Shown one piece after another: positions 5,277 to 49,860 of a stretch of DNA of 64,000 bases. Under the pieces are notes generated by a model that saw only the letters and a program-made list of their open reading frames with translations, was not told the origin of the DNA and searched no databases. Source of the DNA: Carcharhinus longimanus (Eukaryota); the NCBI GenBank assembly GCA_030264375.1, contig JASCQW010000119.1, positions 9,412,069 to 9,476,068 of the forward strand. The letters run 5' to 3'. Within the stretch, counting starts at the first letter, position 1. Every line of letters starts with the position of its first letter. Both the position numbers and the translations under genes were made by a program.

Positions 5277-5510
5277 AGAACATAGAACACTATAGCACAA
5301 AGAGGCCATTCGGCCCACAAGTTGTGCCGATCATATCCATACTTACCAGGCCTGCAGGCTCGAAGGGCCAGATGGCCTACTCCTGCTCCTATTTCTTATG
5401 TTCTTATGTTCTTACTCATCCAGAGGTCTCTTAAAAGCCCCCAACGAGTTCGCCTCTACCACCACCGACGGCAGCCTATTCCACTCACTCACCACCCACC
5501 TCCCTTTGAG
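5277..5510 (-). mobile_element. CR1 3' end fragment interrupted by an opposite-orientation CR1 tail
   Basis: AGAACATAGAAC...GGCCATTCGGCCC tail signature (reverse strand); the sequence resumes after 5413 with CTCTTAAA...GCCTCTACCACC...TTCCACTCACTCACCACCC. Confidence 0.75.
5350..5413 (+). mobile_element. Short young CR1 (HER1-like) 3' tail insertion
   Basis: CAGGCTCGAAGGGCCAGATGGCCTACTCCTGCTCCTATTTCTTATGTTCTTATGTTCTT, identical to the reverse complement of 22614-22672. Confidence 0.85.
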
Positions 5511-6957
5511 AAATACGCGTGAAAATAAAACATCTAATGGAAATCGGAATGTGTACACCATTCAAGATGATATTTTTTGAACATGTGGCTGTTCCTGACT
5601 TATCATCAATTCTGCATGATTTGGTCATATAATGAGCACATACCTAGCTCTTCTCCTTTAAGTGTCAAACCTGTGAGCAGATAAGTTACCACCTGTAACA
5701 ATGAACGAAATATTTTCCAAAGATTTTAATTGCGATCATATCATTATGTCCTAAACATGAATGACAATATCCAATCTCACTCGTTTACCATTTTGTTTGA
5801 GGTTCCACATTGGAAGATGCAGCCATTGTCGATCAGGTTAATCATTCATTGCAACAATAGTGTCTGAAATTGTCAACCTAGAGGTTGAAAGCACAACTGC
5901 GTGCACGTCCGTTTGAAGCTTTAGCGCACTTCGAGAGGATTCAATGAATATTTTGGTCACGTGCACTCTGATGGAGATATATGCACATCTAATGGATGTG
6001 TTTTCCAAGTGCAAATTTTGTTAGGACGTTGCAGTGTCAATACGTTTTTTTTTCGGAGTCTTGAAAAACAGTGGTGGCGCCAAGCTACAAGAACAATGAA
6101 ATTCTTATCACTTTGTTAAAAATAAAAGTAGAGTACCTTGCGTCCTGTCATGTCCACCATTCGTGAAGGTGGAATTTTGACACACAAAAAATCATGAGAC
6201 TTTTAGTAGTTCCATGGTATATCTGGGTGAATTAAGTAAATCCAGCACGCCTGTGATGATGGGAAACCATTGTTGATCAAGTTTCAGTTCTTTCAGAAGT
6301 GGCACCAATGGCTGCTCAGAGAAATGTAGTCAATGCAGTGCATTGAGTCTTCTCGCAGACATTGCGTAATTAACACACATCTGACTTGTGGCCCATTTAG
6401 TACTTCTCTTAGATAACAGGTTTGCTTAGTGAAAGTTATTAGAGTTAAATGGTGAATGAATGATGTCGTGCTGACTGAAGGGTAGTTCGAAATGTTTTCC
6501 TCAAAAATTCGTTATTCTCATACTGGCCATCCTGCTAAATATGAATCAGATCGACCATGCAGACCGGTATTAATTTCATTTAAATTTACGATTCAAGTCG
6601 GATAAGCTTAAACAAAGTTTAATGGCCCGAGGGCATTCTAGACAATATAATGGTCAGTATTTGAAAACACTTACGTTCCTGTTGTTCACGTAATGTATCC
6701 GCTGAAAGGCAAACATCTGATTTGAAATATTTATGAAACAACATTTTATGTCACAGATATTCAGTATAATCAATTGAAGACATGTAAGAAAACACATTCC
6801 TGCAATAAGAAAAGAAGAAAAACAAATGTCTCTATGGTGCTGCAAAGCTGCTAAAAACTCCCCCGTTGTTAACACCAGAATTGTTATCCTGATACTCTCC
6901 TGGCAGTGTGACTGAATATGAGCATTGGTAGCCAGGGTGGCGCTAGTGTGAGGGGAG

Positions 6958-7908
6958 TGTGGTAATATGATCAGGGTCTGATTTTTTTTTTAAGTCGGAT
7001 TAAATGCGATATCCCAACTTGAAGAACTGGGTAAGTTAACATCAAACACATTCAAACCTCAGGGAAGACAGACTTGATGAAAGTCAAATTTACAAAAAGG
7101 CAGGAACATGTCTGGGCCTGGTCCATCAATCACAAATCAAAGATCATTGCACTCAACTGAGGCATGAGAGGAGATCATCACCACCTATTGCAATGTATTG
7201 GCGTATTGTTAGAAACACAGATTGGACCAGACTTTCTGCCACCTAGACTTACTTATCAGACAACAGGTTACTTGTAAGCAACAGCATCGATGTAGACACC
7301 TGGGAGTGAGCCCCAGTGTCCTGTCAGGCAAACATCAGTAAACCCACTGGGTATTGGGATCCCCCTCTGGAGATCGCATTGGACGGAAACCAGAGACATT
7401 TCTGGAAAGGCAACCAAAAAGGCAGAAATGTATTCATCTCAGACAAACCAGCAGCGAAGACTCTACGATGGAGGCGACATTTACCGTCAGAAGAATGACC
7501 AGAGAAAGAAAGCGNNNNNNNNNNNNNNNNNNNNNNNNNNNNNNNNNNNNNNNNNNNNNNNNNNNNNNNNNNNNNNNNNNNNNNNNNNNNNNNNNNNNNN
7601 NNNNNNNNNNNNNNGGGGGGGAGGGGGGGGCGGAAAGCTGCCATTGGAATTCACTTTCGTGACGAAGGACCAGAGAGACTCAGGAAATTGGGCCTGCACT
7701 TCAACCAAACCATTTTTGTGGTAATATACTTCAAACGGTGGGACCCTCTTTGTTTTAAGTGGGTAATTTAAGGGTTAATATTGCTATAATTAACAAACTT
7801 GCGAGATCTTTTCTTTTATTTGTCCTTTGTCCATCTTGCAGTTAACAGTACTGGGGTAGAACCTTCATTAAGTAAACTGGTCGAAAGTGTCTGAGAGTTA
7901 CACTTACA
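6958..7908 (+). repeat. 5' LTR
   Basis: Starts TGTGGTAATATGATCAGGG; ends ...GAGTTACA (7902) or ...CTTACA (7908). Colinear with 18132-18947, sharing AACATGTCTGGGCCTGG, ACCCACTGGGTATTGGGA, GGACCAGAGAGACTCAG and GTAAACTGGT. Poly(A) signal mutated to AACAAA at 7792. Confidence 0.9.
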
Positions 7909-7910
7909 AT

Positions 7911-7925
7911 TGTCACCCCAGACGC
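7911..7925 (+). promoter_or_regulatory. Primer binding site, tRNA-Arg(CCT)-like
   Basis: TGTCACCCCAGACG just after the LTR end; resembles TGGCACCCCAGATGG, the complement of the vertebrate tRNA-Arg(CCT) 3' end as I recall it; 2 mismatches in 14. Confidence 0.6.
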
Positions 7926-8040
7926 TCCTTCGATACGAAGTGATACATTGCTCAGAAGTCGAACCCTGAATCCGGTTTCTCCAACACTCCATTTGAGCCT
8001 GAACGAAGAGAGTAGATTGCCCCACAAGAAAGCCAGTGTT

Positions 8041-8048
8041 AAGTGAGT
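8041..8048 (+). promoter_or_regulatory. Candidate major splice donor in the proviral leader
   Basis: AA|GTGAGT between PBS and gag ATG, the usual position for a retroviral major splice donor. Confidence 0.4.
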
Positions 8049-8246
8049 GAATGATTAATACAGATTCGAAGACTCAATTAGGCCATAAACCCGGTGTCTG
8101 TATCACGAGATGGACAAACTGCGTTGTTAGAACTAGGATAGTCAAGTGAATTTGGGTAAAATCTACGCAGGGAATTTGCTGAATACTGGACCCTTACCCC
8201 AGTGCTTTAATTATCCTCACGTGACGAATCTTAAAAATAAATAATT

Positions 8247-8995
8247 ATGGACAGTCGTGCTGAATGGGTGGAAGTCCTCCGTTTATATTTGAACCATAAG
8301 AGGTCCAAATATGTGCAGTGAGGTGACACCCCGAAACTGTATCTGGGATCGGAAGGAGATAATTATTGGAATCATGACCATAAAGAAGTCGGTAAGAGGG
8401 CTACAAAGCTTAGGAAGGTGATTACAATCGCCTGATCTCGAGAAAAGCGGGGATTAGTCGTGTTAAACATGACAGAGAGGCAATTGGAATTAGAAATAGA
8501 CACACGAGAGGAAAGGAACCACCTTATTACGATACACATGAACAAGTTCCAGTCTGAATATGATAATGCCCACCAAAAGGCAAAGCACAATGTCAGTGAA
8601 GGAAAGGCTGCTCTGTACAGTTGGAGACAATTAACCATAGATGCAGTGGCCTGCAGGCTGCAGTAAAAGTTTTACACTAAACAGGAAAATAAAATCCTGC
8701 CCGTGCAACATACCAATCCAAATGCCTGCGTGACACTGAAGATTTCTAATCACAACTAGCTATCCAAAGTGATGCAAAGTGTGCATATACCACCAAAACA
8801 CCGGATAGTGACCCACGGGTAGATTGGGGGCGGGGGGTGATTTAGAAAAGGGTGCCTGCCGTTATACAATTGTTAGCGTCACTGTGACCGGGGATACATC
8901 CTCCGTTCCCATTAATGGAACAAACGGCACCACACTAATCAGACATCCCGTCCGGAAAACCCAGTTCCGCCCCTAATCCGCCCCCTTCCCGGAGC
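8247..8995 (+). pseudogene. gag: gag N-terminal region with coiled-coil character; capsid/NC apparently deleted
   Basis: ATG 8247 is in frame (through stops) with ORF 8460..8666 ERQLELEIDTREERNHLITIHMNKFQSEYDNAHQKAKH; Pro-rich stretch near 8960-8990; first ORF after the PBS. Confidence 0.55.
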
Positions 8996-9002
8996 ACTCA
9001 GA

Positions 9003-9185
9003 ATGGGACAATAACAGGAGAGCATAGAAACAGACCAGTTGGAATTTGGACTGGATAATATAATGTGCCATCACCCAGCTATCTTGGTTAAACTCCAGCC
9101 AGAGCCAGAACACATTAGAGGGACCGATCTGATGAGGAAATGCAAAATAATCGTTCTATCCCGCTAAGTGTTCTTTTGGCAAGTA
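9003..9185 (+). pseudogene. pol: Aspartic protease C-terminal half
   Basis: Translates ...LEFGLDNIMCHHPAILVKLQPEPEHIRGTDLMRK, matching the (I/L)LG(R/T)D(L/F) retropepsin C-terminal motif; no DTG/DSG half seen. Confidence 0.55.
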
Positions 9186-9369
9186 AGAACCACTTGTCAA
9201 TTCCCTGTCGAGGTGGGCCACCCACAGATATATAGACCGAATTTCTACTTTTGAAAAATTGTGGATCAGGGCTACAGAAATGATGTAGGACCCTGAAGCA
9301 AACGTATATTAGCCTAACACATAAAAGCATTCGCAGTCACAAGCATGACCATGTCAGAATAACAGGGGA

Positions 9370-10255
9370 AGTAATCATAGAAGGACCTTACTCTAAACCC
9401 CGAAGACAGAACGGCTTCGCTAAGCAAGCCGAAGGGGAAGTGTCCAAGCTGATTAGCATTTTATGAAAACAAGGGATTCTGATCCCCGTTGTTTCCACTA
9501 AGAACTCCTCCATTTGGCCGTTAAGGTAACCAGAGGGTTCCTGAACGTTCACAATTGNNNNNNNNNNAGTAAGATCACCCCAATTACAGCCCCAACAGTG
9601 TTGACTAACCCAGAAACCATGATGAAACAAGCCCCACACACATTTTTTTTTACGTGTTGGACATCAGTAACGGCTTCTGGTTAATTCGCTTAGATCATCT
9701 CTGTGAACACAGATTTGCCTTAATGTTCAAGACACAACAGTGCATCTGGACATGTTTATCACAAGATTTTCTTGCCTTTCCCTTTATATTTCATAAGCGC
9801 TTAGCAAGCTGCTTGGAGAGATTCTCCAAACCTGAATATTTATTCCAAAGCGTAGACGATCTCCTGTTACAGACTGCAACAAAATCGGGACATCTTAAAT
9901 TATTGGAGGAACTGCTGAACCACTCACTACAATAAAGTTAAAGGTAAATCCCAAGAAAACCCAGATCATGAGACCACCGGTCCCTTACTTGGGTACAGGA
10001 GTGACTGAGGAGAAGCATGAGATGTAAAAGAAGCAAGTTGAATCCGTAACACGACTTCCCTTGCAAAGAACATAAACTTGGTGCACTATTTTCTCGGCTT
10101 AGTGAAGGACTATCAGAACAACATCGACGGTTTCGCCACTAAAGCCGCTCCCCTGTCCGAAATTTTATGAAAAAAATACATGGGTCCAGACTATGCGGCA
10201 CACACAAGCAAGTCTCAGACCTCAAACAATCCCTGGCACAAGCCAGTGCCTGATA
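9370..10255 (+). pseudogene. pol: Reverse transcriptase, spuma/class III/loki-like, with stops and frameshifts
   Basis: KQGILIPVVSTKNSSIWP, VLDISNGFW (motif A), RFALMFKTQQCIWTCLSQDF (LPQGF-like), PEYLFQSVDDLLL (YVDD decayed to SVDD at 9849-9860), KVNPKKTQ, VPYLG. Confidence 0.92.
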
Positions 10256-10257
10256 GG

Positions 10258-10545
10258 TACCCAACCCTGAACTCCCCTTTGCCCTTGAAGTAGTGGCCAC
10301 TGATAGTACACTCGCCGCTGAGCCCCTTCCAGAAATGGCGCGGCTCAGCTCAACCCCTTATGCTTCCCACATACTGTGGGGGAAGTACTTTTGTTTTTCC
10401 GGGCAGTGCACCACATTAACTATAAAGTCGGTTTGAACCCTTTCACTATACTTACAGAACACGCCCCGACTCAACTACTGATTAACGGCCGAGTTAAAGA
10501 TGGGGCGGTTAGTCAAAATTGTAGCACAGTAGACATTCGTATCAC
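10258..10545 (+). pseudogene. pol: Tether/connection (degenerate first RNase H fold)
   Basis: PNPELPFALEVVATDSTLAA ... YAS ... AVHHINYKVGLNPFTILTEHAPTQLL resembles the Ty3-type RNase H pattern (PF.L..DAS...AYAS...T.H.PL) without its catalytic residues. Confidence 0.65.
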
Positions 10546-10739
10546 AGTGTTGAGATATTCGGGCGAACATACCCGGGTCTCCACATTCTTGGAAGAACCC
10601 CTTACTTATGGGGACGAGCCTCATGAGTGCCAGGTTCCGGCAATAAAATACCCCAAGCGGCCATTGTTTGTCAAAAGAAAAGATGAAAGGAGCCAGGGGA
10701 ATCATCTAAATCCAGGCTCAGGACAGTTTAAACATTTTT

Positions 10740-10950
10740 TGTTAAGATGAGTCATCCATGGTGAAAGACGTAAACAGGGGGGCATGATGCCGGATGTACG
10801 TGGAATACCAAGAAGGCAAGCCCCTAAGCGAAGTACCCTTAAAACATACAGCACACTTGGATGCACAGACTGCAGAACTGGCAGGAATAGCATATGTAGT
10901 CAGCCACCCTGAGCTGTTCCCTACACCCACAGACATGCACTCCGATAGGA
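10740..10950 (+). pseudogene. pol: Retroviral-type RNase H, N-terminal half, cut by a CR1 insertion
   Basis: Translates DESSMVKDVNRGA*CRMYV...HLDAQTAELAGIAYVV...TDMHSDR, matching the DGS...AG.G...AQ.AEL.A...IYSDS pattern. Confidence 0.75.
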
Positions 10951-13390
10951 TAAGAACATGAGAAATAGGAGCAGGAGTAGGCCATCTGTACCGTCGAGCA
11001 CAATCCACCTTTCAATAAGGCCATAGCTGATATTTTCATGGACTAGCTCCACTTACTGACCCGCTCACCCTAATCCTTATTTGCATTATTTTTGAAAAAT
11101 GCATTTATCCTTCCTTCAAAAAACATTCAATAGATAGCCTCAACTGCTTCACTGCGCAGGGAATTCTACAGGTTTACAACCCTTTGTGTGGAACAAGTTT
11201 GTCATCAACTCTGCTGTAAACCTGCTCCCCCTTATTTTGAAACCATGTCCGCTACTTCTACTTTCACTCGCCAGTGGAAACAACTTCCCTGCTTCTATCC
11301 TATCTATTCCCCTCCTAATCTGATATGTTTCTATATTTTTTCCCTCATTCTTCAGAATATCAGTGAGTACAATCCTAATCTACTCAGTCTCCCCTCGTAA
11401 GTCAACCGTCTCAAATCCTGACTCAACCAAGTTAACCTAGTCCGCAGACCGCTTCCGCCCCCCCCACCCACCCCCCCCCCCCCCCTGCGGNNNNNNNNNN
11501 AAATGTCTGTCTATCATTTCTCAGGTAAGGAGACCAATACATACACAGTACTCCAGATGTGGCCTCACCAGCACGTTACACAACTGCAACATAGTCTCAC
11601 TGTGTTAAAGCTCCTCCCGTCTAGCAATGGAGGACAATATCCCGTTTGCCTCCTTAATTACCCGCTGCACCTACAAACAGACTCCTTGTGATTTTACAAA
11701 GGACCCACAGGTTCCTTTGCAAAGCAAAATGCTGCAATTTTTACTATTCAAATAATCGTCAATTTTGCTGTTATTCTTACCAAAATGGATGATCTCGCAT
11801 TACTAACATTGCACTCCATCTCCAGACTCTCGCTCACTCACTGAGATTACCTATACCCCTTTTCAGACTTTCATCTTTCCCAACACAGTTTGGCCTGCCA
11901 CTCATCTTAGTGTTATCCGCGAATTTTGACACACTGCACTTGTTCCCATACTCCAAATCACCTATAAATCGTAGACTATTGTGGTTCTATCAGTAATCCC
12001 TGAGGCACACCACTAGTCACTGATCGCCAAGCAGAAGAACACCCATTTACTCCCGCCTCCCTTTGCTTTTTGTTAGTTAACCAATCCTTTATCCATGCTA
12101 ATACCTGACCAGTAACACCGTGAACATTTCCCTTATGCAGCAGTCTTTGGTGCGGCACCTTCTCAAATGGCTTCTGGAAATCAATTTACGTCACATCCAC
12201 AGGTTCCCCCTTATCCAGTGCACATGTTATGTTCTCAACGAATTCCACCTAATTAGTCAAACATGACTTGCGCTTCATGAGCCCAAGCTGCTTGTTGCCA
12301 ATGGGGCGATTTTTATCTAAATGTTTCACTTTTTCTGCATTGAGGATAGGTTGAAGCATTTCCCCTAATCGGGAAGTTAAAATAACTGGCCTATTGTCAC
12401 CTGCTTTTCGTTTATCTCCTTTAAAAAAAAATCAAACAGCGGTGTCACATTCCCTGTTTTCTGAGTCCATCGAATTTTGGTAAATTTCCATTAGTGCATT
12501 TGTTATTTCCCCTGCCGTCTCTTTTAGTACCATGATGCATTTCATCTGGGCCATGAGGCTTGTCGACCTTTAAGCCGCATTAGTTTGCCCAAAACTACTT
12601 CTTCCGTGATACTGGCAATATGTAGGTTTTCACCAACGATAGCCTTCCTGTCAACAATTTTTGGCAAGTTACTTGTGTATTCCACCGGGAAGAGAGATTC
12701 AAAAAATGAACCTTGCTCAGCCATTTTCTCTTTTCCAGTTATTACATCCCACTTCTCATCCTCTAAATGACCAATGTTTCTTTAGCCACTCTTCTTCGTT
12801 TTATATATTTGTACAAACTAATGCTATTTCTTATATATTGTGAGCCTGTTTTCTCTAGTGATACATCTTACTGTTCTTTAAACCCTTTTTCTGTGGCTTT
12901 CTGCTGACCTTTAAAGAATTCCCAAAACTCTAGTTTCCAATAATCTTTGTCACTTTACGTGCCTTCTTTCTCTCAATTTGATACTCTCCTTTATTTCCTT
13001 AGATATCCACGGCTGTTCATCTCTGTTTCTCCAGTCCTTCCTTATCAAATTAAACTTTTGAATGATGTTTTGTTTTAGATTATATCTCATGATCTAGGGT
13101 CCTTCTTTCCTGTTCCATGTTACAACCAAATATAACCATTTCAAACCATAAACCAGAGAAATTACACAGAAACAGTATTCTAGTGCACAACAACAAAAAC
13201 TACAATGCCAAGAGCAAAATGAAAAATAAACACTGAGTGATCAATCGACACTCTTCCTTGTATCCTCTGCTCCCTAAATCCATGCGTTCGCCCAACTCCA
13301 AAGCACTCCTCTCAGCTAAGGAGCAATCAGCAACAATGTCGGCCTCGTCTTATTAATGAGAGCTCACAACTCTCTGCCTATTTCCACTTC
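10951..13390 (-). mobile_element. CR1 LINE inserted into pol, internally deleted; 13040-13390 possibly its 5' UTR
   Basis: Tail TAAGAACATGAGAAATAGGAGCAGGAGTAGGCC at 10951; minus ORFs 11976..12158 (PHQRLL...WIKDWL...VTSGVPQG) and 12542..12724 (ITEEVVLGKLMRLK). Confidence 0.88.
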
Positions 13391-13391
13391 A

Positions 13392-13944
13392 TTCACGCCC
13401 CATGTCCTCGTGATGAGGTGATCTAGGCGAGAAATTGAACCTTTACTCGGGCTGAACCTGCCCGAGTCCGAAGTCACAGCCCTCACTCACGAGAATGTCG
13501 TGAGAGCCATCCTGGAAAACAAACAGAACCGCACAACGGGATACAGCCGTTAAGATAGGCAAGGGGAAGGAGCAAAATAAGGCTTACTTTGTCGATAACG
13601 TGAAGTTCTTCGAATATGACATTGGTCAACAGATAATGCTCAGAGTCTTCCAGCCTGGTATGTTCCTCTCCCCCATATAAGCCGGACCCTATCCAGTGGT
13701 ATATAAGACCAGCCCTTCTGAATGCAAGGTCATAGTAGACTACAAGATAACCAGTTTGCACCTTGTCAACCAAATGAAGGCATTTGGCTCCCAGCAAAAT
13801 TTTGACAAATACGACGTTACCCTGGAAGGAATATTTGAGGAACACGGGAGCCCCAGACTCACCCCCATCCACCTGGACCCAAACCACAGTCCACAACCTG
13901 TAACCGATGTTATTGACTCCCATCCAGAACCCCCGGACCAGTAG
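13392..13944 (+). pseudogene. pol: Integrase end-of-core and C-terminal GPY/F domain; HHCC and DDE core missing
   Basis: FTPHVLVMR (G.TP.EL..GR-like), KEQNKAYF, YDIGQQIML, AGPYPVV (13681-13701), HLVNQMKAF. Confidence 0.8.
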
Positions 13945-15190
13945 AACAAAGAACAAAGAACAAAATCAGCCCGGGAAACAGGCCCTTCGGCCCAACGAGC
14001 CCGCGCCTCCATCACAACACCACCAGTCCACCTCTCTACCCTCTGACCCCTATCTAATGTTTTATGGCCATCCAGATTGAGGGAAACTGATTTAGGGACA
14101 AGTTATTCCTGCCAATCAGCCTAACAGCACATCTTTGGGGTGTGGGAGGAAACCGGAGCACCCGGAGAAAACCCACGCANNNNNNNNNNNNNNNNNNNNN
14201 NNNNNNNNNNNNNNNNNNNNNNNNNNNNNNNNNNNNNNNNNNNNNNNNNNNNNNNNNNNNNNNNNNNNNNNNNNNNNNNNNNNNNNNNNNNNNNNNNNNN
14301 NNNNNNNNNNNNNNNNNNNNNNNNNNNNNNNNNNNNNNNNNNNNNNNNNNNNNNNNNNNNNNNNNNNNNNNNNNNNNNNNNNNNNNNNNNNNNNNNNNNN
14401 NNNNNNNNNNNNNNNNNNNNNNNNNNNNNNNNNNNNNNNNNNNNNNNNNNNNNNNNNNNNNNNNNNNNNNNNNNNNNNNNNNNNNNNNNNNNNNNNNNNN
14501 NNNNNNNNNNNNNNNNNNNNNNNNNNNNNNNNNNNNNNNNNNNNNNNNNNNNNNNNNNNNNNNNNNNNNNNNNNNNNNNNNNNNNNNNNNNNNNNNNNNN
14601 NNNNNNNNNNNNNNNNNNNNNNNNNNNNNNNNNNNNNNNNNNNNNNNNNNNNNNNNNNNNNNNNNNNNNNNNNNNNNNNNNNNNNNNNNNNNNNNNNNNN
14701 NNNNNNNNNNNNNNNNNNNNNNNNNNNNNNNNNNNNNNNNNNNNNNNNNNNNNNNNNNNNNNNNNNNNNNNNNNNNNNNNNNNNNNNNNNNNNNNNNNNN
14801 NNNNNNNNNNNNNNNNNNNNNNNNNNNNNNNNNNNNNNNNNNNNNNNNNNNNNNNNNNNNNNNNNNNNNNNNNNNNNNNNNNNNNNNNNNNNNNNNNNNN
14901 NNNNNNNNNNNNNNNNNNNNNNNNNNNNNNNNNNNNNNNNNNNNNNNNNNNNNNNNNNNNNNNNNNNNNNNNNNNNNNNNNNNNNNNNNNNNNNNNNNNN
15001 NNNNNNNNNNNNNNNNNNNNNNNNNNNNNNNNNNNNNNNNNNNNNNNNNNNNNNNNNNNNNNNNNNNNNNNNNNNNNNNNNNNNNNNNNNNNNNNNNNNN
15101 NNNNNNNNNNNNNNNNNNNNNNNNCCGGCCAACATGCGTCACCTCACATTTATCCGGATTAAACTCCATTTGTCATGTATCTGCCCAATC
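13943..15190 (-). mobile_element. CR1 3' fragment with nested V-SINE; middle is N gap
   Basis: AGAACAAAGAACAAAGAAC...GGCCCTTCGGCCC tail; 15125-15190 reads MEFNPDKCEVTHVGR on the minus strand (CR1 RT C-terminus). Confidence 0.8.
14060..14179 (-). mobile_element. V-SINE/HE1-like SINE core, runs into gap
   Basis: GTGTGGGAGGAAACCGGAGCACCCGGAGAAAACCCACGCA, the reverse complement of the V-SINE core. Confidence 0.85.
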
Positions 15191-15589
15191 CCGCCCCAAT
15201 TTAAAGAGCTCCGGGAATAAAGCCATGGCCTCAGGGAACCCGACGCAAAGGATGGGGCATCAGCAAGCCTTCCCCAACACGGCGTGCCAGGCGGTCCGAC
15301 TCCCAGAACCGTTTGACCGAGCGCTCATTACCAGAGGTGATAAAACGGTGGGTCTTTGGCAATCAAAGCCCTCATACTTTGCTTCCCGACACAAAGGAAA
15401 TATCATGGCATCACCGTCCAAATTGTAGATTGTTTCATCCACTCACTCCACGCATCAACGAATTGAAAAAAAAAGCTTCTTCTCTGCCTACATTATACAG
15501 CACCATAATCATCTGACACAGCACCGTTTTGTTGTGGGATGAAGAATCTATTTTTATACTGTCCTACAGTCCTTCAACAACACGGATAC

Positions 15590-17893
15590 ATGCCACAGAC
15601 CCAACATTTTATTTTCACGATATGCAAATTCCTTACTCCACTCAACCCCATTAAACACTGATTGCCGAGCAACCCTTTGCATCACACTATAGAACCCTTA
15701 ATATTCAGTTACTTATTTCTTTGTTTCACTTATTAAACAAAAGGAGTCATATGACATTCTCGTAACGAAATAGCAAAAGGAATCAGGTATTAATAGGAAT
15801 TTAGAGGGGCTACCTTGATCTCCCCCAGAATGAACTACATATACGTAGCTGCTATCCGTCATGCCTCGTCGGAGATAGAACCACAGACTGCACACCAACC
15901 GAAGACTACAATATGAGCCTACGATACACCGGATGCGAGCAAATGTGAGGGAGGCATCCTATGATATACTCCAATACGAGTATCACATATGGGTGAAACA
16001 ACCAAAGAGTGATGCACAAGAAAGCTAATACGAATTCTCATTATTGCTCCCTCGCTCGTGTCTGGTGGGTGCACACTAACCATATATGGAGCTAGCCTGT
16101 CCAACCTATGGCCGATAAAAAAGGGCTGAAATTATGAAAGAGGTCCGCTGGTAAGGTTATTCAAAAAGAGTACATGTAAGACGAAATTAGGAAATGATTA
16201 AGACCAACTGTTAGCATAACCATCGCGAATTGTTTGGAAACCAGCACAGGGATCCACAACTGGGTTGATACCAAAACATACAGGGAAAATATTATTCGAC
16301 AACACACACTACAAATTGGTACCAGTAGTGGTAGATTTAGCTGGAACACAATGATCAGACTGATGTGACTCCCCGCTTGGAAAATTGTTGCTCCACCTGA
16401 CTCAAAGGCCGCTAAGCCGAAGGATTGGAACGCACAAGGAAGGACAGACGTCCAGATCAAAGGACCAGAATAGTAGGGCAATCCTGAATGATATGGCGAC
16501 GGCATACGGAGCGGGGGAATCCATCATTAACACGCTGGATCTGGCTGATTTGGAGAACATGTTGAGAGTCCTAACACACTAAGTTAAAGAGACATTAGAC
16601 CTTACCTGAAATGGAAATGCTCATCAACATGCTGAGAGAGATTTGGCTGAGAACAGTACCAGTATTCTTCTGGTTTCTGTACCAGAAGGTGGTGCCGCAC
16701 TATTAGTCACGTCACGGAGGGAGGAGTGAAGATGATGCCAGACAATAGAAACGAACCCTGTGTAGCATTTATGGGCAATGGATGTCGAGCAGTTAAGAAA
16801 GAGCACCGTTCATTTTCGTAGGAAAAAAGTTCCATCCGGGAACAGTGACAAACAGATTGAAAACCTATACCAAGGGAAAAAAATGCATTCCAACGTCACT
16901 AACTGTCAATTACAACAACTGACAAGATTTGGTCTGACGATAGTTGTGAAGGAACCCCACGGATCGCACTAGGAATGGTGTTTGGGATCCCAGAATCATT
17001 AAGGGATCAGGTCGGGTTGAGATTCTTTGAAGCAAAAGTATTGGAATCAGTAAAGGAGGGATATGGACGGGATAGCAGGTTTCAGAAAGGAGGGTGGTTC
17101 AGAAAGTCGGGAAGCTCATCGGCACCATTCTGGAGAAGTGTGAATACTGACAAAATTGTCCTGTGTCCATATTCGATGTATCAAAATGAACTTGCACTGT
17201 GTAGATTCAGAAAAAAAAAACTATTGAACTAAACTGTACACAGTAAGTTCGAGTTTTAGAAAGGAAGGTCACAGGAATGCTTACACTAGGGGAGATGGTG
17301 CGGGGGTGGGGGGGGGGGGGTGGCGGTAAAGAATATTGTATTGCAACCTCTCCACAAAATTGCCACTCTTCGACAGCCATCTGCAATATCCACAACACTG
17401 CATTTTGCGTTAAACCACACATTCCCGCCAGGATAGATTTGAGGTGGTGGACATTCACAGAAGAGAGAACATAGAAAGTAACGCTAGTGAGGAATTGAGA
17501 CAAAGCTTGAGGGAGCACTTAGGAAAAGAACAACGGTACCGGGATAGCACTTCCACCTGAAAAACGACATCAATTTCGGACTCAATTGATCACAGAAGAC
17601 AAGACCTTTGCCAAAGTGGCGCAACAAATACGGGAAATTTTAAAAACAAGAACACTAGCGCATTTAGAATCAATACATGGTGGGAGGATTTCGCGGATTG
17701 GGGTTCCAATGTCTAAATCCATCTATGGGTCCGCATGTTGTCACACATGGCCGTAATAAGAATCCTAGTTGTGACAGTGCACCTAACAATTCTCGTGTTT
17801 AAACTTGCTCAACGGAAAAATGAATTTCTCCAACACTTGGACAGCTCAAGGCTCATCCGACATCAGGAAAGTCCTAACAATAAAGTGCCTTGA
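15590..17893 (+). pseudogene. env: env-like fusion glycoprotein remnant with many stops/frameshifts; start uncertain
   Basis: Between IN and the 3' LTR. Contains GLIPKHTGKILFDNTHYKLVPVVVDL; R|AILNDMATAYGAGESIINTLDLADLENML (cleavage/fusion peptide/heptad, from 16475); Cys-rich KEYCIATSPQNCHSSTAICNIHNTAFCVKP; NTWWEDFADWGS; hydrophobic TM MLSHMAVIRILVVTVHLTILVF; stop at 17891-17893. Confidence 0.75.
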
Positions 17894-18131
17894 TACTCTC
17901 ATATTTATATTGTAAAATGTACAGTCATTTGCCATTTTGTACTATGCATTGCTTTGATTTGTATTTACCCAATTGATGTATTGTTTTTTTTTACTCTTTT
18001 TCTTCATTACAATTTGTTGGAATTATTATGGGTTAGAATGATACTATCAACCCTGTTATTGCTTGTTGCCATACTTTGGTAAGGATTGTGTTACCCAGTT
18101 CGCTTATGTTCACTGGATCAAGTGCAGAGAA

Positions 18132-18947
18132 TGTGATAATATAATCAGGGCCCAGTTTTAAGGCAGATGAAATTGGATATCTTGAATTAAAGAATTGAAC
18201 ATATTGAAATCAAAAATCATCAAAACTCACATATGCCAGAGTTGACGAAAGTCAAACATACAAAGACACAAACATGTCTGGGCCTGGCCAATCATCACTT
18301 ATCAAAGATCAATGCACTCTACTGAGACCCCCAGGAGTTCATTGCGCCCCATTGAAATGCATTGGCTTATTTTCAGAAGCCCATATCGGGTGAGACTCTT
18401 TGTCACCCAGATTTACTGCAGTTACCCTATCTGACAACAGATTGTGTGCAGGCAACAGAATGGGGAGCAGGCCCCAGTGCCCTGTCAGACAGACGTCAGT
18501 TACCCACTGGGTATTGGGACACCTCCTCCCGTGACTTCATTGGACGGAAAACAGAGATGTTTCTGNNNNNNNNNNNNNNNNNNNNNNNNNNNNNNNNNNN
18601 NNNNNNNNNNNNNNNNNNNNNNNNNNNNNNNNNNNNNTCGATGAGGGAGACAAAACCACCATCCGGAAAAATGACCAGGGAAGGAAGGAAAGCAAACGCT
18701 TCCATCGAGACTCACCTTCTTGACGATGGACCAGAGAGACTCAGAGAACCGGGCCTGCAGATTAGTCAAACCGTCTTTGTGTTTCGTACACTTGAATCTG
18801 GAGTATTCTCCTGTTTGATGTGGGTAATTCATGGATGAATAATGTTATTATTAATAAACTTATATTTGCTCTTGCCCATTTTGCAATTTTGGGCACCAGG
18901 GTAAAACTTTGAGTAGGTAAACTGGTTGAATGCGTCTGCGAGTTACA
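18132..18947 (+). repeat. 3' LTR
   Basis: TGTGATAATATAATCAGGG...TGCGAGTTACA; AATAAA at 18853-18858; preceded by a decayed purine tract (AAGTGCAGAGAA). Confidence 0.9.
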
Positions 18948-20314
18948 GGATAAAGAGGAAGGAATGTTGTGCTTGCTTAACGCTCTGTATGTTAAACATT
19001 AACACTGAGCCTTCTCTGAAGAAAAAAGAAAATTAATGCAATTCCTTGAGGAACAACCATACAACCCTAATGTTTGGCACGTCGTAATCGGGAAAGAAAA
19101 TTCATAATTTCCTCGTTGATCAATCATTCCGTTGGGCTGTTGTGATGCATTGTCAGATTCGGTACTGGAACGTGTTCTGTTAATATGCTGACGCATATAA
19201 ATCATGGACGTGGAATACGCAGTGAAGAATGGAATGATGATATTGCTTTAACATAATAGAGAACAGAACGGTGTATTCAAAGTGTAAGAATCTGACCGGG
19301 GTATGATGGAAAGTCACATGCAAAAAAAAACCGTTCGCATGCGTCTGTGCAGCGGAGTAAAGTGACAATGAAAATCAAAATGTCAAATTGATTATTATTA
19401 GGCACCATTAAATGAGTTGTGATACCATTGGGCAATAACACTTGGACTGTTTATGATCAGCATTTTAAATCATAATTCTGGATTGCCGATTGGTTGCACT
19501 TTCGTGAGGGCTAACCCGACAAATGTGCTGATGCATGACATTCCACTGCGAGATTCCCAGGCAATACGTTCCTCAAACTCTCAGGGAAGTATAATTTTAC
19601 AATTTGCATTTACCCCATCCCAGCAATATTACATAGTGCTATCTTAAACAGAAATATCTGATGGCCCAGTGTGTTTTACTTATATCCTTTCGCATGAAAC
19701 TTAATTAATGTAGGTAAAATATAGTACATTCCCCGACAATGCCCCAGTCATGCCTCAATTCACTGGGAGGACATGCAGTATCCCATAAAGCCCAGCGAGC
19801 ACAAGTATCGACCGCCTCTGAAATTCACTGCTACTTGGGATGATCAGATTAAGATTCGCAAAAAAACCCATTTTCCCTGATCAGTAGACCCTTACATGAC
19901 CGTACAGCACCCGTTCATATCACCCAACTCCAAATCACACTGACTATATCCCTCCTACAACCAATAATATGTCGACAACCAAATATCTTCAACAAATACA
20001 ACGTCCTTGTTTTCGAAAATTGGCAGTGATCTTTATAAGTATAGTTGTGGATGTTGTGAAATTTAAAACTTTTTTTTTGGATTATGAACATATATTTAAC
20101 TCGACAAATTGTCTGTAATGTTGTGCCATAACTATACATTCTGAAAATGTGCATTCACTCATGCTCGCAAGAAGGATTACAGATTGATCTCCAAAATCAC
20201 CGATGATTGAAATGTGTAATTAACGAGGAACTTATGTGCCCAAAGAATGATTGATGCTTTATAATTTACATCTGGAGGGCTTATGTAATTCAAATCTCAC
20301 CGAGTATTGAAGAA

Positions 20315-21720
20315 GAACCAATATAATGACAGAAGTTAGCCAATTATCGCCCAATCAGTCTNNNNNNNNNNNNNNNNNNNCTTTTTTTTCGATGCTCAGC
20401 AAAGTGATGGAAAGCGTCACCGAAAGTGCTATCAAACAGCTATGGTCAGCAAAAACCTTCTCAGTGAAGCCCAGTTCGTGTCTCGGCAAGGTCAGTCAGC
20501 TTCTCACCTCATTGTAGCTTCAAATCAAACATGGAGAAAAAAGCCGAAATCCAATAGTGAGATGAGAGTGACAGCTCGTGACACCAAGAACCCATCTGAC
20601 CGAGTGTGCCTTCAAGGAGCCGTAACAAAACTAATGTCAATGGGTATCAGAGGGCAACCAGTCTCCTGTTTGGAGTCATACGTGTTACAAAGGAAGATGT
20701 TTGTAATTGTGGAGGGTCAGTCATCTCAGCTGAGGGGCATATCTGCAGGAGTCCCTCAGGGTAGTGTCCTGAGCCTAATAACCTTCAGCTACTTCATCAA
20801 TTGCATTCCCTATGTCATTAAGCCAGAAGTGGAGTATTTGACGAGGATTGCACAATGTTCAATACCATTCCCGACTCCTCAGATAGTGACGCAGCTCACG
20901 TTCGAACAGAACAAGATCTGCAAAATAACCAGGCTTGGGCAGACAAATGGTAAGTAACGCTGGCACCACTGAAATGCCAGGCAATGACCATCACCAATAA
21001 GAGACACTCTAACCAACGTCCCTTGACATTCAATGGTATAACCATCACTCAATCCCTCACTACCGATATTTTTGGGATTGCAGTTAAACAGAAGCACAAC
21101 TGGACACACTACGTAGACACAGTGGCTGCATGGACAGGTCGGAGGCTAGGAATACTGCAGCGAGTAATTCAGCTCGAGGTTCCCAAAAGCCTATGCAACA
21201 TTTAAAATGCACGAATCCGGAATGTGATGAAATACACCCCACTTGCTGGATGGATGCAGTACCAAAAACACTCAAGAAGCTCCAGCTATCCAATAAATAA
21301 ATTGGCTTGGTTTGCACCACATCTGCGAACATTCAACCCCTCCAGTGCTCATCAGCAGGAATGTATAAGGCCTATAAGATGCACTGCAGCATTCACCAAA
21401 GATCCTGAGACAACACATTCCAAACCCAAAAAGCATTTTCACTTAGAAGGACAAGGGCAGCAGATAAATGTGAACACCACCAGTGGCAAATTCCCTTCCA
21501 AAACACTCACCATCCTGACTTGGAAATTCATCGCCGTTCCCTCGGAGTTGTTGTGTCAAAATCCTTGAATTCCCTCCCTATCGGCATTGTGGCTCAACCC
21601 ACAGGACATGGATTGCAGCGACTCAAGACAACTGCTCACCACCTCCTCCTCCAGGGCAACCAGTGATGGGAATAAACACTGGCCTGCCAGTGTCGCCCAT
21701 TTTCTGGGAGTGACGAAATA
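20315..21720 (+). mobile_element. 5'-truncated CR1/L2-group LINE (RT and 3' tail)
   Basis: NYRPISL-like at ~20340; ORF 20442..20957 (DRV...KLMSMGIRG...ISAGVPQGSVLS..FSYFIN); 3' tail GATGGGAATAAACACTGGCCTGCCAGTGTCGCCCAT. Confidence 0.9.
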
Positions 21721-22449: not shown

Positions 22450-22980
22450 CCTAAGCACATGTGGCTGCATTCCATTCACTCACCACCCCCTGAGTGAAAA
22501 ACTTACACCTAACATCTCCTCTGTACTTGCTTCCCTGCACCTTAAATCTGTGTCGTCTCGTAGCGACCATTTCAGCCCGGGGAAATAGCCTCTGAGAATC
22601 CACCCTATCTATTAAGAACATAAGAACATAAGAAATAGGAGCAGGAGTAGGCCATCTGGCCCTTCGAGCCTGCCCCGCCATTCANNNNNNNNNNNNNNNN
22701 NNNNNNNNNNNNNNNNNNNNNNNNNNNNNNNNNNNNNNNNNNNNNNNNNNNNNNNNNNNNNNNNNNNNNNNNNNNNNNNNNNNNTGCATCCTATCTATGT
22801 CCCGCTGCAACTTCTGACATCCCTCCAGACCATCCACAACACCACCAACTTTCTTATCGTCGGCGAACATACTAACCAATCCCTCCACTTCCTCATCCAG
22901 GTCATTTATGAAAATGACAAAAGCAAGGGTCCTCGAACAGATCCCTGGGACACTCCACTGGTGACCGACCTCCATGCAGA
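22450..22980 (-). mobile_element. CR1 RT/3' fragment with a nested young CR1 tail from 22614
   Basis: Minus ORF 22682..22975 FVIFINDLDEEVEGLVSMFADDKKVGG...LQRDIDR; also KYRGDVRCKFFTQGVVSEWN. Confidence 0.88.
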
Positions 22981-25776: not shown

Positions 25777-25950
25777 CGGCAGCACTGTGGTCAGCGATGC
25801 TGCTTCGCAGTTCTTATAGATCCGGGTTTGAGCCCTAGCTTAATTTACTGTTTCTGTGAAATTTGCACATTCTTCCCGTGTCTGTGTGGGTTTCTTCCGG
25901 ATTCTCCAGTTTCCTCCCATATTCTTAAAGACGTAGTGGTTAGATGCATT
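25777..25950 (+). mobile_element. V-SINE fragment
   Basis: GGCAGCACTGTGG...TTTGCACATTCTTCCCGTGTCTGTGTGGGTTTCTTCCGG...TTTCCTCCCA. Confidence 0.8.
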
Positions 25951-26374
25951 GTCACGCACAGACGCTGGACTGTGACCACTAGTGAAATTTCATCGTAACT
26001 TAATTACAGTGTTCATGTAAGCCCAATGTGTGATTAATCAATGAACTTCTCTTTTACCTTTCCCATATCATTGACGCACACCTCCCAGCAAAATATCTGT
26101 GCATCGTTTAGTGATACATTGGAACTTGTAGTTAGAGAAGGTTTTTTTATTCTTTTTTTCTCCATTTATGAACCTTCCAGAATGGTACAATATACCCTGG
26201 ATGGTGCCCTAAAAAGCAAATGCACAGACTATTCAAACAAAAAATCATACAAGGTTCTGGTGAAGGAAGAATGTGAAATCAATGAAAATCTCTGGACAAT
26301 CGAGATGTATAGATTTGGATAGACAGAAGCAGTGTTGGGCTGGAAGGAACAAAACATTTTTCAGAAATGAAGAT

Positions 26375-27529: not shown

Positions 27530-27790
27530 TATTATTGCCAAAAGTAGGCTTACATAATTCCTGCAACAAAGTTGCTGTGAAAATATCCTGTTCCCACACC
27601 CTGGCACCTGTCCAGGTCAACGCACCTAACCAACACGTGTTTCAGAATGTGGGAGGAAATACGTACAAAACCAACACAGACACGCCAAGAACGTGCAAAC
27701 ACCATGCAAACAGCCGGATTCGGAGCCGGAATCGAAGTCATGTCCCAGACGCTGTGAGACAGCACTGCGTCAGCATGCCGCTCCCGTGCT
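27530..27790 (-). mobile_element. V-SINE with AAGCCTACTT tail
   Basis: AAGTAGGCTTACAT tail, TGTGGGAGGAAA core, GAACGTGCAAAC, GCTGTGAGACAGCA. Confidence 0.75.
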
Positions 27791-33499: not shown

Positions 33500-33830
33500 T
33501 TTACAATTCTCTGCTTGACCTCGTCGGGTATTCCTGGCTTGAGTTACTGTCTCTGTGGGGTTTGTACATTCTCCTCCTGTCTACGTGGATCCCGTCCGGG
33601 TGTTCTGGTCTCCTCCCACAGTCCATAGTTGTGCGGGTTAGTTGATTGCCCATGCTAAAATTGCCCTTGAGTGTTTTGAAATCTGTAGGTTAGAGGAATT
33701 AGTGGGTCAATATGTAGGAATAAGCGGGTACAGCCTGGGTGAGATAGTCGCCGGTGCAAACTTGACGGGCCAAATGGCCTCTTTCTGTCCTGTAGAGTAC
33801 GGATGATAGTATCTATCTATCTATCTATCA
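33500..33830 (+). mobile_element. V-SINE with CR1-type tail, followed by (TATC)n
   Basis: GGGGTTTGTACATTCTCCTCCTGTCT...CTCCTCCCACAGTCC...CATGCTAAAATTGCCCTT...GGGCCAAATGGCCTCTTTCTG. Confidence 0.85.
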
Positions 33831-34516: not shown

Positions 34517-34740
34517 GTGGAGTTTGCATATTCTGCCCGTGTCTGCATGGTTTTCCTCCGGGTGCCCCATGTCCCGGCCATAGTCCAAAAGATGTGTTGG
34601 TTAATTACATTGTCCATGCTGAATTTTCTATCAATGTATCCAGGGAGGCGCCGGAGTGCGACGACTAGGGGAATTTCGCAATCAATTACTTTTAGCGTGA
34701 ATGGAAGCCTACTTGTGACGAATGCACAGATAAGTTTCAA
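34517..34740 (+). mobile_element. V-SINE, 5'-truncated
   Basis: GTGGAGTTTGCATATTCTGCCCGTGTCTGCATGGTTTTCCTCCGGGTGCCCC...GGCGCCGGAGTGCGACGACTAGGGGA...AAGCCTACTTGTGAC. Confidence 0.85.
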
Positions 34741-46600: not shown

Positions 46601-49389
46601 AAAAAGAGAAAATTAAACACATCATTCCCTGTCAAAAAATTAAACAATACTATGAAAGGCTAAATATATTTTGTTCGAAAAAAATATCTTGGCTTTTAAC
46701 ACATCTGTATGGAACTTGCAAAAGATAGATGCAGATAAATTGAGAGTTCTGGGATATTTCAAGTCCTGCATGATGTTATTTTGTACGATGTTCATTGAGG
46801 TGATTTCCATCTGTGGACTATCGTGCAGAGTGGGTCATCATTCTAACTATTCGAGAGTAAATCATATGGGCAACATATGATAAAGTTGGAACTGGAACAC
46901 AGTTGTGCCCATATATGGTAACATGGGCCGGACAAATTAATTATGAAATATCATAGATGTGCAATTGCAAATACAATATCAGGAATTCGACGGAACAGTA
47001 AAAATCAGCTGAAAAATTCTGAGGACGCTAACAAATCTGAGGACCACTCGACTGGTGGGAATTTGCATTCATATTTGTATCAGTGCTTCTTTATTCGATG
47101 ACTGTCATGTGCTTTCAGCAACCTCAGGGAAGGACAGTATAATGGAGAAGTAAGCAAATGTCTGGATATCCGTAGTTCGTTCGACCCGAGATAGCCAATC
47201 TATATCACTGATCCACATTTGGATAGTCCGAGAGGGGAGTCGCAGGTAAAAAAAAGAATCCGGGGGGCCATTTATTTGGGGATGAAAATAACACACAATT
47301 CAGATATTTTATGTGTGGATATTTGAAACCATTCCGCGACATTTATGTATATTTCTATACGAATTAAACATTTTAACATTAACAAAGACGAGAAGTCAAT
47401 TAATAGAAAATTGAGCAGGAGGAGACCCATTGAAGGGGACAACAAAATTCATCATGGCGATACCACGTAAAAATATGTCCAGTGCTTTATTTTAAGGGTA
47501 GCTACACATACAAACAACTGAAAACCAGCGAGATCATTGTTAATATTTGGGATTGATGGAGGTGTTTAAAGAATTGCAGCTGGGTCTGAGCAATGGTGCT
47601 TAATCTTCCCGGAAACCGAGATCAAATTGTGAGGTTTTCATTGCGATCATAATTCCAATTTTTGTCTTCAAGTAACAAACATGTTGACTTGCCGAAGTTC
47701 TAGTTGCCACGAAAATATCAGGATACGCGCCCAGTGCCAAGGTATGACCTGATATACACTGAGTGAAATATTGTCCGGCAGGCCATGCGATTGCCACCAC
47801 ACTGAAATAGTAAGGGACACATCATGAGTGGAATACATTTAATTTGGCATCGGTAGCTAACCAACTACCTAGCTGTTTGGTTTTCATCAGGATAGGAAGT
47901 GCCATAGAGGCTGTGGAAATGCTAACACGAGTAATAAAATGTGCGGTTATCAAATAAAAATTGTTTCACTGCCAACACTTTGCTATTCTCCAATGGCGCT
48001 CTCTAAGAAATAAGAAATGGGAAACCACGAGCTGAAATTTGAAGCAGAATCCTTTCGGATACCTTCTGACATATGAACAACAGGCCACGCAATGAAATCA
48101 GAAATGAATTCTCAACAATGTATTTGTTTTTTTTTTCAGTGTTCGCCCATTGGCGAAAGGAGAGTGGGAATTTGAAGGCATTAATAATCATACTGATAAC
48201 TATGGAGGGGTGTAGCAGTCATTGAGATACTGTGCCCAGTAAAAAGGATAAACAGAGACAAACCACAAAAATGAACACAATGTTTAACTGCAGGTTAGCA
48301 AATAGAATGTGAGAAAGAGACTATGCTGGAAAAGACCTTTCGGACAAGCAGTTGGAAGATCCAAACATTGCTGGAAGTTGAAAGAAATGCTCAGTTGATG
48401 CAACAAAAAAATCATAACATTGGATAATATAATCAAACAATTATATTGTGCTTGAGATTTAAAAATAATACTTTGACACAAACAACTCTTAATCAATAAC
48501 GATGATTGATAGAGATAACCCCTGTTTTTTTTATCTATAGGCAGATGCCAGTTACTTGTAATCGTAGCTGAGAATATATTTGCCTATGTATATCTATTAT
48601 TTTTCCCACTCTGATTAATCTGAATGTCTTCATTTAGAGTCCTACAGCAAGCTGCGAATAAACTTAATTTGAAACCACTCCACAACTTTGCCTGCCTACT
48701 TGCAGGGAACAATAGTTTTAAATACCACAAGAAATTCTTTGCAACAACCATGTGACACTTGACAATTGTCATTGCATTTTGTTTCCCATCTTGTTTCGAA
48801 TGTCTGTCACTTAATAATGAAAGTTCAATTCTATTTTTCACCACTTCCCATATAACGGTGTTGTGTTTTTTTTTCTGGTGCACGTTCCAGTAGTACGTTT
48901 TTCATCTGCACGTTTTATCCTTTTCTAAAACGTCCTCCATATTATTACGCACACTGTAACTTCATTGTTAAACTAATAAGGTTTGCCTCAAGTAAATCGG
49001 CAAAAGTTTGTTGTATGAAACTGATAAAGGTAATGCTTCAATCGGCAAGTGAAAAACGTCATTCCATTTACTGAGGTGGATTTCTCTTAATTTAACATGA
49101 GGCTTCGGTATTCTGGAGGTTGTTTGTCATTCGTGTCAGCAATCTTATGTTATTTCACGACATGTCGTATTACAATTCTTAGAGCAGATTTGTGTTGTCC
49201 AAGGAAAGATCGCAACATCTATAAATAAGAAACACTTCGATATGACTTCATTGTAATCGGACTGACTCATGTGTTCTCGCTGTTTTAATTTAAAGCGGTA
49301 TATCACACATTCTTACTCACACTGCCCAACATTTGAATTCAGAATTTCGAAAAGAAGTTGATGTTTAACTGTTTTTTTTTTAATTCATT

Positions 49390-49860
49390 TGAACTAGGCT
49401 TGTACTCGTTAGAGTTTAGAAGAATGAGGGGAGATCTCCTTGAGACATATAAGATGATGAATGGGATGGATAGGATAGAGGTGGAGAGACTCTTCCCGCT
49501 CAGAAAGGACAGTAGGNNNNNNNNNNNNNNNNNNNNNNNNNNNNNNNNNNNNNNNNNNNNNNNNNNNNNNNNNNNNNNNNNNNNNNNNNNNNNNNNNNNN
49601 NNNNNNNNNNNNNNNNTGGTGAATCTCTGGAATTCTCTGCCCGTTGAAGTGGTGGAGGCTGCCTCGCTAAATATATTTAAGACACGGGTTGATGGGTTTT
49701 TGATAAGCAAGGGGATTAAGGGTTATGGGGAGAGGGCGGGAAAGTGGAACTGAACCACGACAGATCAGCCATGACCCTATTGAATGGCGGGGCAGGCTCG
49801 AAGGGCTAGATGGTCTACTCCTGCTGCTATTTCTTATGCTCTTATGTTATGTTCTTATTC
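49390..49860 (+). mobile_element. Relatively young CR1 (HER1-like) 3' end
   Basis: ORF 49358..49753 LGLYSLEFRRMRGDLLETYKMMNGMDR...VNLWNSLP.EVVEA...FK; tail GGCTCGAAGGGCTAGATGG...TTCTTATG. Confidence 0.92.

Follow-up and report, generated by a model that had tools for sequence, protein, structure and literature searches.

The stretch from position 6,958 to 18,947 of a 64,000-nucleotide window of contig JASCQW010000119.1 (assembly GCA_030264375.1; the window is the whole stretch of DNA analysed, and positions are counted from its first letter) is a real provirus, laid out LTR-gag-pro-pol-env-LTR (LTR, long terminal repeat) and long dead. Its reverse transcriptase (RT) places it, as a new member, among the endogenous retroviruses (ERVs) related to snakehead retrovirus (SnRV; clade Huo, clade III) and not among the lokiretroviruses. 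Very probably it goes back to one enveloped retrovirus of that group that inserted a single time into the germ line. A first-pass annotation had described an ancient provirus of a true retrovirus, neither Ty3/gypsy nor gamma/epsilon in type. That description holds: LTRs now 75% identical enclose the layout expected of Retroviridae, with a tether, a second RNase H (weak) and an env. Its suggestions of a loki-like polymerase or a spuma relative did not survive comparison of RT sequences, since close kin of the element are 58% identical to SnRV, against 39% to a Loki-like sequence and about 41% to foamy RT. No working enzyme is encoded today.

The LTR pair and the age of the insertion

The 5' LTR (6,958-7,902; 945 nucleotides (nt), including a gap of 100 N) and the 3' LTR (18,132-18,947; 816 nt, including a gap of 72 N) lie on the forward strand, as do all features below unless stated otherwise. 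Both copies begin with TG and end with CA, at the outer coordinates first proposed. Aligned as a pair they are identical in 548 of 730 non-N columns, with a score of 546, whereas the highest of 30 shuffles reached 47.5; a global alignment of 720 columns gave 75.3% identity and a Kimura two-parameter (K2P) distance of 0.305 (bootstrap 0.259-0.355). Divergence is even along the repeat, the K2P values of its thirds being 0.31, 0.28 and 0.32. No further LTR copies were found within the window.

Just inside the 5' LTR lies a decayed candidate primer binding site (PBS; 7,910-7,928), recognised from its letters. The LTR end TTACA recurs directly after the 5' LTR (7,898-7,908), and the candidate is therefore displaced by 7 nt. 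It may match tRNA-Arg, presumably also the primer of SnRV-related or clade Huo elements, in which gag-pol readthrough would be expected too; here the gag-pro junction is decayed like the PBS. The literature consulted on this point did not name the primer tRNA of SnRV, and tRNA and Rfam scans of the window gave no matches. Of the PBS called earlier, then, a decayed candidate near 7,910 is what stands. At the other end is a decayed polypurine tract (18,122-18,131; 8/10 purines). The candidate target site duplication (TSD) pairs GGAG (6,954-6,957) with GGAT (18,948-18,951), a weak 3/4 match expected by chance in about 5% of cases for one length; the best-fitting length was 4 bp.

Decay of the coding region can be set beside the LTR clock. 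After neutral decay by half the LTR distance (d=0.152), residue identity should be 73.6%, with 4.7 stops in 310 codons; the RT observed here, compared with the intact library protein P0001, shows 71% identity and 5 stops. This agreement of two independent clocks points to one insertion followed by unselected decay, and implies that P0001 is close to the founding virus in the protease-RT stretch. P0001, which comes from a contig of 4.9 kb, also sits on a tree branch of about 0.01, nearly the ancestor of the window element, so that the protein of the lineage appears to have changed little while the window copy aged. Together, these data support a single insertion of great age, no younger than about 70 million years (My): rates of 2.2e-9, 1e-9 and 2.2e-10 turn the LTR distance into 69, 152 and 693 My, respectively. 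The last figure predates the jawed vertebrates and is impossible, so 2.2e-10 is not a valid rate for this host. It was used by Han 2015 for the elephant shark (PMC4422223), and a direct shark mutation rate of 7e-10 per generation is on record (PMC10587355). For comparison, CmiERV-I has an LTR distance of 0.033, roughly a ninth of the present one, and the oldest Loki pair stands at 0.162, roughly half. If orthologues of the provirus exist in relatives of the host, they would provide a dated check on the neutral rate in a slow-clock group.

Gag and polymerase

The gag remnant (8,247-8,930; about 230 codons) has an ATG, a basic stretch and a segment rich in E, K, R and Q, these residues making up 0.20-0.40 of each 25 codons. 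Of the coiled-coil gag start proposed earlier, the charged composition is confirmed, and a coiled coil there is a possibility. A coiled-coil Gag start has been reported for SnRV (PMC2717909), as has one Gag zinc knuckle, a trait that varies in the group (PMC4299795). The remnant contains no zinc knuckle and no meaningful Pfam match, and the capsid region has probably been deleted.

Comparison with SnRV and with intact relatives from a protein library (P0001, the closest, a protease-RT protein; also P0007 and P0009) helped to locate the remaining parts. The C-terminal half of the protease (9,015-9,215) scores z 53 against P0001. Its catalytic D[TS]G motif has no intact copy, and for the N-terminal half P0007 and P0009 gave no match (z about 0), so the protease called in the first pass is present in part. 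The RT (9,380-10,200), interrupted by stops and frame changes, retains LDISNGFW at 9,657 and a decayed SVDD at 9,849, in agreement with the earlier call, and matches Pfam RVT_1 (E 6e-6). Over the protease-RT stretch 217/305 residues (71%) are identical to P0001, with 5 stops and 8 frame breaks.

A tether, or degenerate first RNase H (10,240-10,670), scores z 21-24 against two intact relatives (P0007 and P0009) and 2.0 against SnRV. The N-terminal part of a second RNase H follows (10,740-10,949) and is cut from 10,950 by an antisense long interspersed nuclear element (LINE). Single sequences gave it z 0.6-3.0, and a profile run over the whole window put it third in rank, at a non-significant E of 7; in its expected slot, its score was reached by 3/2000 shuffles. 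Thus, of the two RNase H-fold regions announced, the tether is clear and the second is weak, though significant in its slot; intact relatives carry the tether plus RNase_H. The pairing is indeed a retroviral trait, as had been argued, but it is common to all retroviruses (PMC7947760) and so is no pointer to Loki. Further downstream the C-terminal half of the integrase (13,280-13,790) bears the predicted GPY motif at 13,684; of four relatives compared with it, two gave z 9 and 18 and the other two 2.5 and -0.2. The integrase N-terminal half with its HHCC motif and the catalytic core are missing (z -0.5, -1.2). A mark of lokiretroviruses in this enzyme, an integrase closest to CGIN1, would be sought in the core that has been deleted here.

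Affinity of the reverse transcriptase

Searching the library with the RT frame yielded 88 proteins, and a second search brought the total to 92. One of these (P0014) is SnRV Pol, by its match to a row named SnRV in the supplement of PMC7947760; another (P0089) we call Loki-like for its motifs PLSRWPM and RCPFGYLNSP, the latter also found in Loki-Lch. The labels epsilon-like, gypsy-like and foamy-like were likewise assigned here from motifs. The window RT reads PITAPTV and QSVDD and has Q at the PQG position; in its kin the corresponding motifs are PQG and QYVDD, as in SnRV. All 24 of the 24 published Loki RT rows, inspected by eye, instead have [QK]Y[KR][IL]P at the start, WP, PFG and no Q before the YVDD-type motif, a signature that we derived from those rows (PMC7947760).

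Identities give the same picture. The RT of P0001 is 58% identical to SnRV and 59-70% identical to the library proteins P0002, P0006, P0007 and P0009, against 40-41% for epsilon-like rows, about 41% for foamy RT (some 81/197, counted by eye), 39% for the Loki-like row and 32-34% for gypsy-like rows. Conversely, the highest identity of SnRV among 70 rows is to P0001. The window RT itself, over 123 shared columns, matches P0007 in 54, SnRV in 52 and P0009 in 52, followed by epsilon-like (37), Loki-like (32) and gypsy-like (31) rows. By eye, an elephant-shark element, CmiERV scaffold-2, which Han 2015 classed with SnRV, shares HKHDCGR, LDISNGFWSIPL and LPQGFHNSP with P0001. The RT is therefore most similar to SnRV and SnRV-like shark ERVs. 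Such elements are familiar: CmiERV lineage I clusters with SnRV in the elephant shark (PMC4422223), clade Huo, the SnRV-related clade, occurs in all major vertebrate lineages (PMC6001957; see also Naville and Volff 2016, PMC4977317), and 2843 clade III RT loci have been counted in 6 chondrichthyan genomes (PMC11089739). In this respect, ours adds one to the many clade III ERVs of cartilaginous fish, and its age is what chiefly sets it apart.

The 70-row tree held the window and the 92 hits minus 11 possibly human, 4 non-RT and 8 short ones. The 11 possibly human hits had gamma- or ERV-L/S-type motifs, the 4 non-RT hits were repetitive, and 3 of 11 short RT hits that had been set aside were restored for the 70-row tree; the trees consequently contain no ERV-L/S or gammaretroviral rows. 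Another tree used 26 rows and a mixture model. Foamy viruses are represented by one short motif-labelled foamy-like row and Loki by one Loki-like row, with no ERV4 or Odin rows. In the 70-row tree the window, P0001 and P0005 form a clade with 100/100 support within a group of 28 rows (90/90). The Loki-like row falls outside all retrovirus rows with support of 98/96 (70 rows) and 92/92 (26 rows), and the 26-row tree gave no resolution at the base of the retroviruses. A gypsy-like partner for the kin is rejected by an approximately unbiased (AU) test (p 0.0013). This agrees with the earlier claim of a deep-branching element outside Ty3/gypsy and gamma/epsilon, the kin being 40-41% identical to epsilon-like rows.

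The envelope

An env remnant extends from about 15,520 (the start is approximate) to 17,895, with a hydrophobic leader near 15,698, a transmembrane segment (TM) at 17,753 and a short tail. In between lie a beta-rich segment (16,262), a fusion-peptide-like start (16,478), an LG..P motif (16,969) and a CP..LC motif (17,164). No immunosuppressive domain (ISD)-like motif and no CX6CC occurs in the three env frames, and the putative cleavage site has no intact furin motif. Loki envelopes, which resemble the F (fusion) glycoprotein of the paramyxovirus type (PF00523), carry an RXKR site there, with a fusion peptide and a TM. From the fusion-peptide-like start to the TM there are 425 codons, compared with about 401 in Loki-Bsp, about 378 in foamy Env and about 140 in the gamma-type Env of CmiERV-I (the foamy value from PMC11468914, the other two counted by eye). 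Measured in codons from that start, three landmarks follow in the same order in the window and Loki-Bsp, at -72/-88, +164/+171 and +229/+239, respectively. A scan of all six frames (127,996 positions) met two of the motif patterns once each and the third four times; because the patterns were loosened after the match had been seen, this is a lead and not a test. At least 260 codons separate the leader from the fusion-peptide-like start, in contrast with 118 residues in Loki-Bsp, and the putative cleavage site thus lies well beyond the roughly 120 residues that mark Loki envelopes.

Formal searches were blank. Pfam returned no relevant family for 3 long frames and 8 shorter pieces, all 4 PDB queries gave chance-level matches (best E 0.19, to a major histocompatibility complex (MHC) class II beta chain), and no homologue was found among 7999 and 2838 candidates. 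One env frame of 109 residues had no usable match in the ESM Atlas, and a single-sequence fold (mean pLDDT, the predicted local distance difference score, 30.9; pTM, the predicted template modelling score, 0.19) gave no fold support. The MHC match, to a class II beta-2 domain at 17,367-17,501, is taken as chance. The env that had been annotated is consequently supported by its long frames and its hydrophobic leader and TM, with no database match, and an F-like character is plausible by eye from its Loki-like landmark spacing. Upstream of the env leader, behind the second of two insertions described below, some 330 nt (15,190-15,520) hold a basic, proline-rich frame that could be an integrase tail, part of the env leader or a small accessory frame.

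In our reading Env belonged to the class I fusion proteins and had a long subunit after the cleavage site, and we lean, on this spacing, towards an F-like Env of the kind found in Loki and foamy viruses. Since foamy Env is F-like as well (PMC11468914), such an Env alone would not make the element a Loki. Foamy Env, of class Ib, resembles the present one in its length from cleavage to TM, and receptor-binding domain (RBD) modules can sit N-terminal to the F core (PMC11468914); however, the foamy RBD lies inside the surface subunit (SU), whereas here the extra segment appears to be N-terminal, and the RT is not foamy. A bolder reading, which we put forward tentatively and hold to be somewhat less probable than not, is an undescribed cartilaginous-fish lineage that combined an SnRV-type polymerase with a Loki/F-like Env to which some 170 residues had been added as a further N-terminal domain; that the provirus is among the oldest two-LTR proviruses from cartilaginous fish, by an LTR distance some nine times that of CmiERV-I, forms part of the same tentative reading. 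In the literature searched, which left most subscription papers outside its scope, we found no description of an F-like Env on an SnRV-type element; a report of F-type envelopes in retrotransposons (PMC13524379) may bear on the F-like reading.

If Env is F-like, SnRV-type polymerases carried both gamma-type and F-type envelopes, which would bear on the origin of retroviral Env. Were the combined lineage real, F-type Env would occur in a third basal group beside Loki and foamy viruses, and would be favoured as ancestral, with gamma-type Env a later replacement (scenarios 1 or 3 of PMC7947760).

Alternative explanations

Several observations weigh against an SnRV-related provirus. SnRV itself lies outside the 28-row group in the 70-row tree (90/90, below the star threshold) and found no resolved place in the 26-row tree. 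AU tests returned p 0.209 and 0.256 for a sister position to the single Loki-like row, and 0.176 for an epsilon-like partner. In addition, the second RNase H is weak, env is without support from Pfam, PDB, homologue or fold searches, the TSD is imperfect (GGAG against GGAT), and the flank before the 5' LTR (6,946-6,957; 10/12 purines) looks more purine-rich than the polypurine tract. With SnRV ungrouped and the AU results as they are, monophyly contributes less to the clade assignment than motifs and identity do. SnRV and clade Huo share with the element the LDISNGFW, PQG and QYVDD-type motifs, the RT identity of its kin, the tether, RNase H, GPY tail and charged Gag start; they differ in the lack of a supported clade, in the low z values against SnRV (tether 2.0, integrase C-terminal half -0.2), in an Env tail that is short here and 136 residues long in SnRV (PMC12193657), and in that the window has no room for 3' accessory genes and no zinc knuckle left. 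The element and CmiERV-I share RT blocks and a charged Gag start, and the host of ours is probably a cartilaginous fish too; in CmiERV-I, however, Env is of gamma type, with ISD and CX6CC, the PBS differs (both by eye), and the LTR distance is 0.033 against 0.305.

A lokiretrovirus or its sister would be the first in cartilaginous fish, Loki having been found in 0/6 chondrichthyan genomes (PMC7947760). Gene order, dual RNase H and a long post-cleavage Env are the same, env landmarks fall at Loki-like spacing (TM at +425 in the window and +401 in Loki-Bsp), and the AU tests leave the sister position unrejected. In the RT phylogeny, the check named in the first-pass annotation, the best trees put the Loki-like row outside. 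Moreover, neither the window nor its kin has the motifs of the 24 Loki RT rows, P0001 shares 58-70% of its RT residues with SnRV-type rows and 39% with the Loki-like row, the stretch ahead of the fusion-peptide-like start is far longer than in Loki-Bsp (about 170 extra codons ahead of the F2-like segment), and the oldest Loki LTR pair stands at 0.162; we regard this origin as very unlikely. A foamy-like (clade Tu) element, to which we give still less credence, would account for the best PDB match of P0001 (foamy Pol, 151 bits) and the long post-cleavage subunit (in foamy Env, furin site 570 and TM 948; PMC11468914), but the PDB matches listed include no SnRV-type chain, P0001 is closer to SnRV (58%) than to foamy RT, foamy rows have no Q before YVDD, and the roughly 235 nt between env and the 3' LTR leave no room for accessory genes. 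Hardly credible at all is an env-bearing Ty3/gypsy or Odin-type retrotransposon: GPY and LTR structure are common to both, and the second RNase H is weak, but the AU test rejects the one gypsy-like row tried, intact relatives have the tether plus RNase_H, and identity to gypsy-like rows is 32-34%, with Odin RTs outside the set. The remaining alternative concerns age: two LTRs from two related proviruses joined by recombination would make the element younger than its LTR distance, as the 3/4 TSD, the purine-rich 5' flank, the internal deletions in gag and integrase and the impossible 693 My from the Han 2015 rate might suggest. We consider it improbable, because RT decay and stop count independently fit half the LTR distance, divergence is even along the LTR, and no env-tail homology was found upstream of the 5' LTR.

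Two further candidates were rejected. A gamma/epsilon (class I) element is contradicted by three env frames with 0 ISD-like and 0 CX6CC motifs and by the 40-41% RT identity of the kin, the AU p of 0.18 not being decisive. ERV4 and Ovex1 resemble the element in being outside classes I and II, and Ovex1 has an env-position open reading frame described without ISD or CX6CC (PMC4299795, PMC2717909). However, ERV4 is described with a 5-bp TSD and no GPY (PMC4299795), whereas the present element has GPY and is best fitted by 4 bp.

For the SnRV-related provirus, standard retroviral biology suggests a history. RT, primed by a tRNA and equipped with tether and RNase H, would have turned the RNA into a DNA copy whose two LTRs were identical, Env would have carried the particle into germ cells, and integrase would have inserted the copy with a short target duplication. 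Unselected drift of about 0.15 substitutions per site, two LINE insertions and the loss of the integrase core, the RNase H end and probably the capsid have since left the present remnant.

Insertions and other repeats in the window

The first insertion is a reverse-strand LINE fragment with RT and 3' tail (10,950-13,100; inner boundary approximate; RVT_1 E 2.4e-9), which we take from its motifs to be of CR1 type. The second, also on the reverse strand (13,942-15,190), comprises a LINE tail, a SINE-like piece (SINE, short interspersed nuclear element), a gap of 945 N and a LINE RT end, and separates integrase from env. CR1-type LINE tails and SINE-like pieces are typical of sharks and rays, and by these repeats the host is very probably a cartilaginous fish, be it a shark or a ray.

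No host genes were recognised in the 64 kb, to which no gene finder was applied. One LINE 3' tail is present in four copies with 83-100% identity (5,354-5,414, 10,950-10,999, 22,613-22,684 and 49,781-49,848); over 61 nt no difference separates the pair at 5,354 and 22,613, which points to recent activity of the family. SINE-like copies with a conserved core, presumably V-SINE/HE1, lie at 14,111-14,179, 25,848-25,953, 27,618-27,713, 33,598-33,798, 34,517-34,614 and 61,407-61,610, and other decayed LINE RT fragments at 5-309, 20,340-20,957 and 49,337-49,753.

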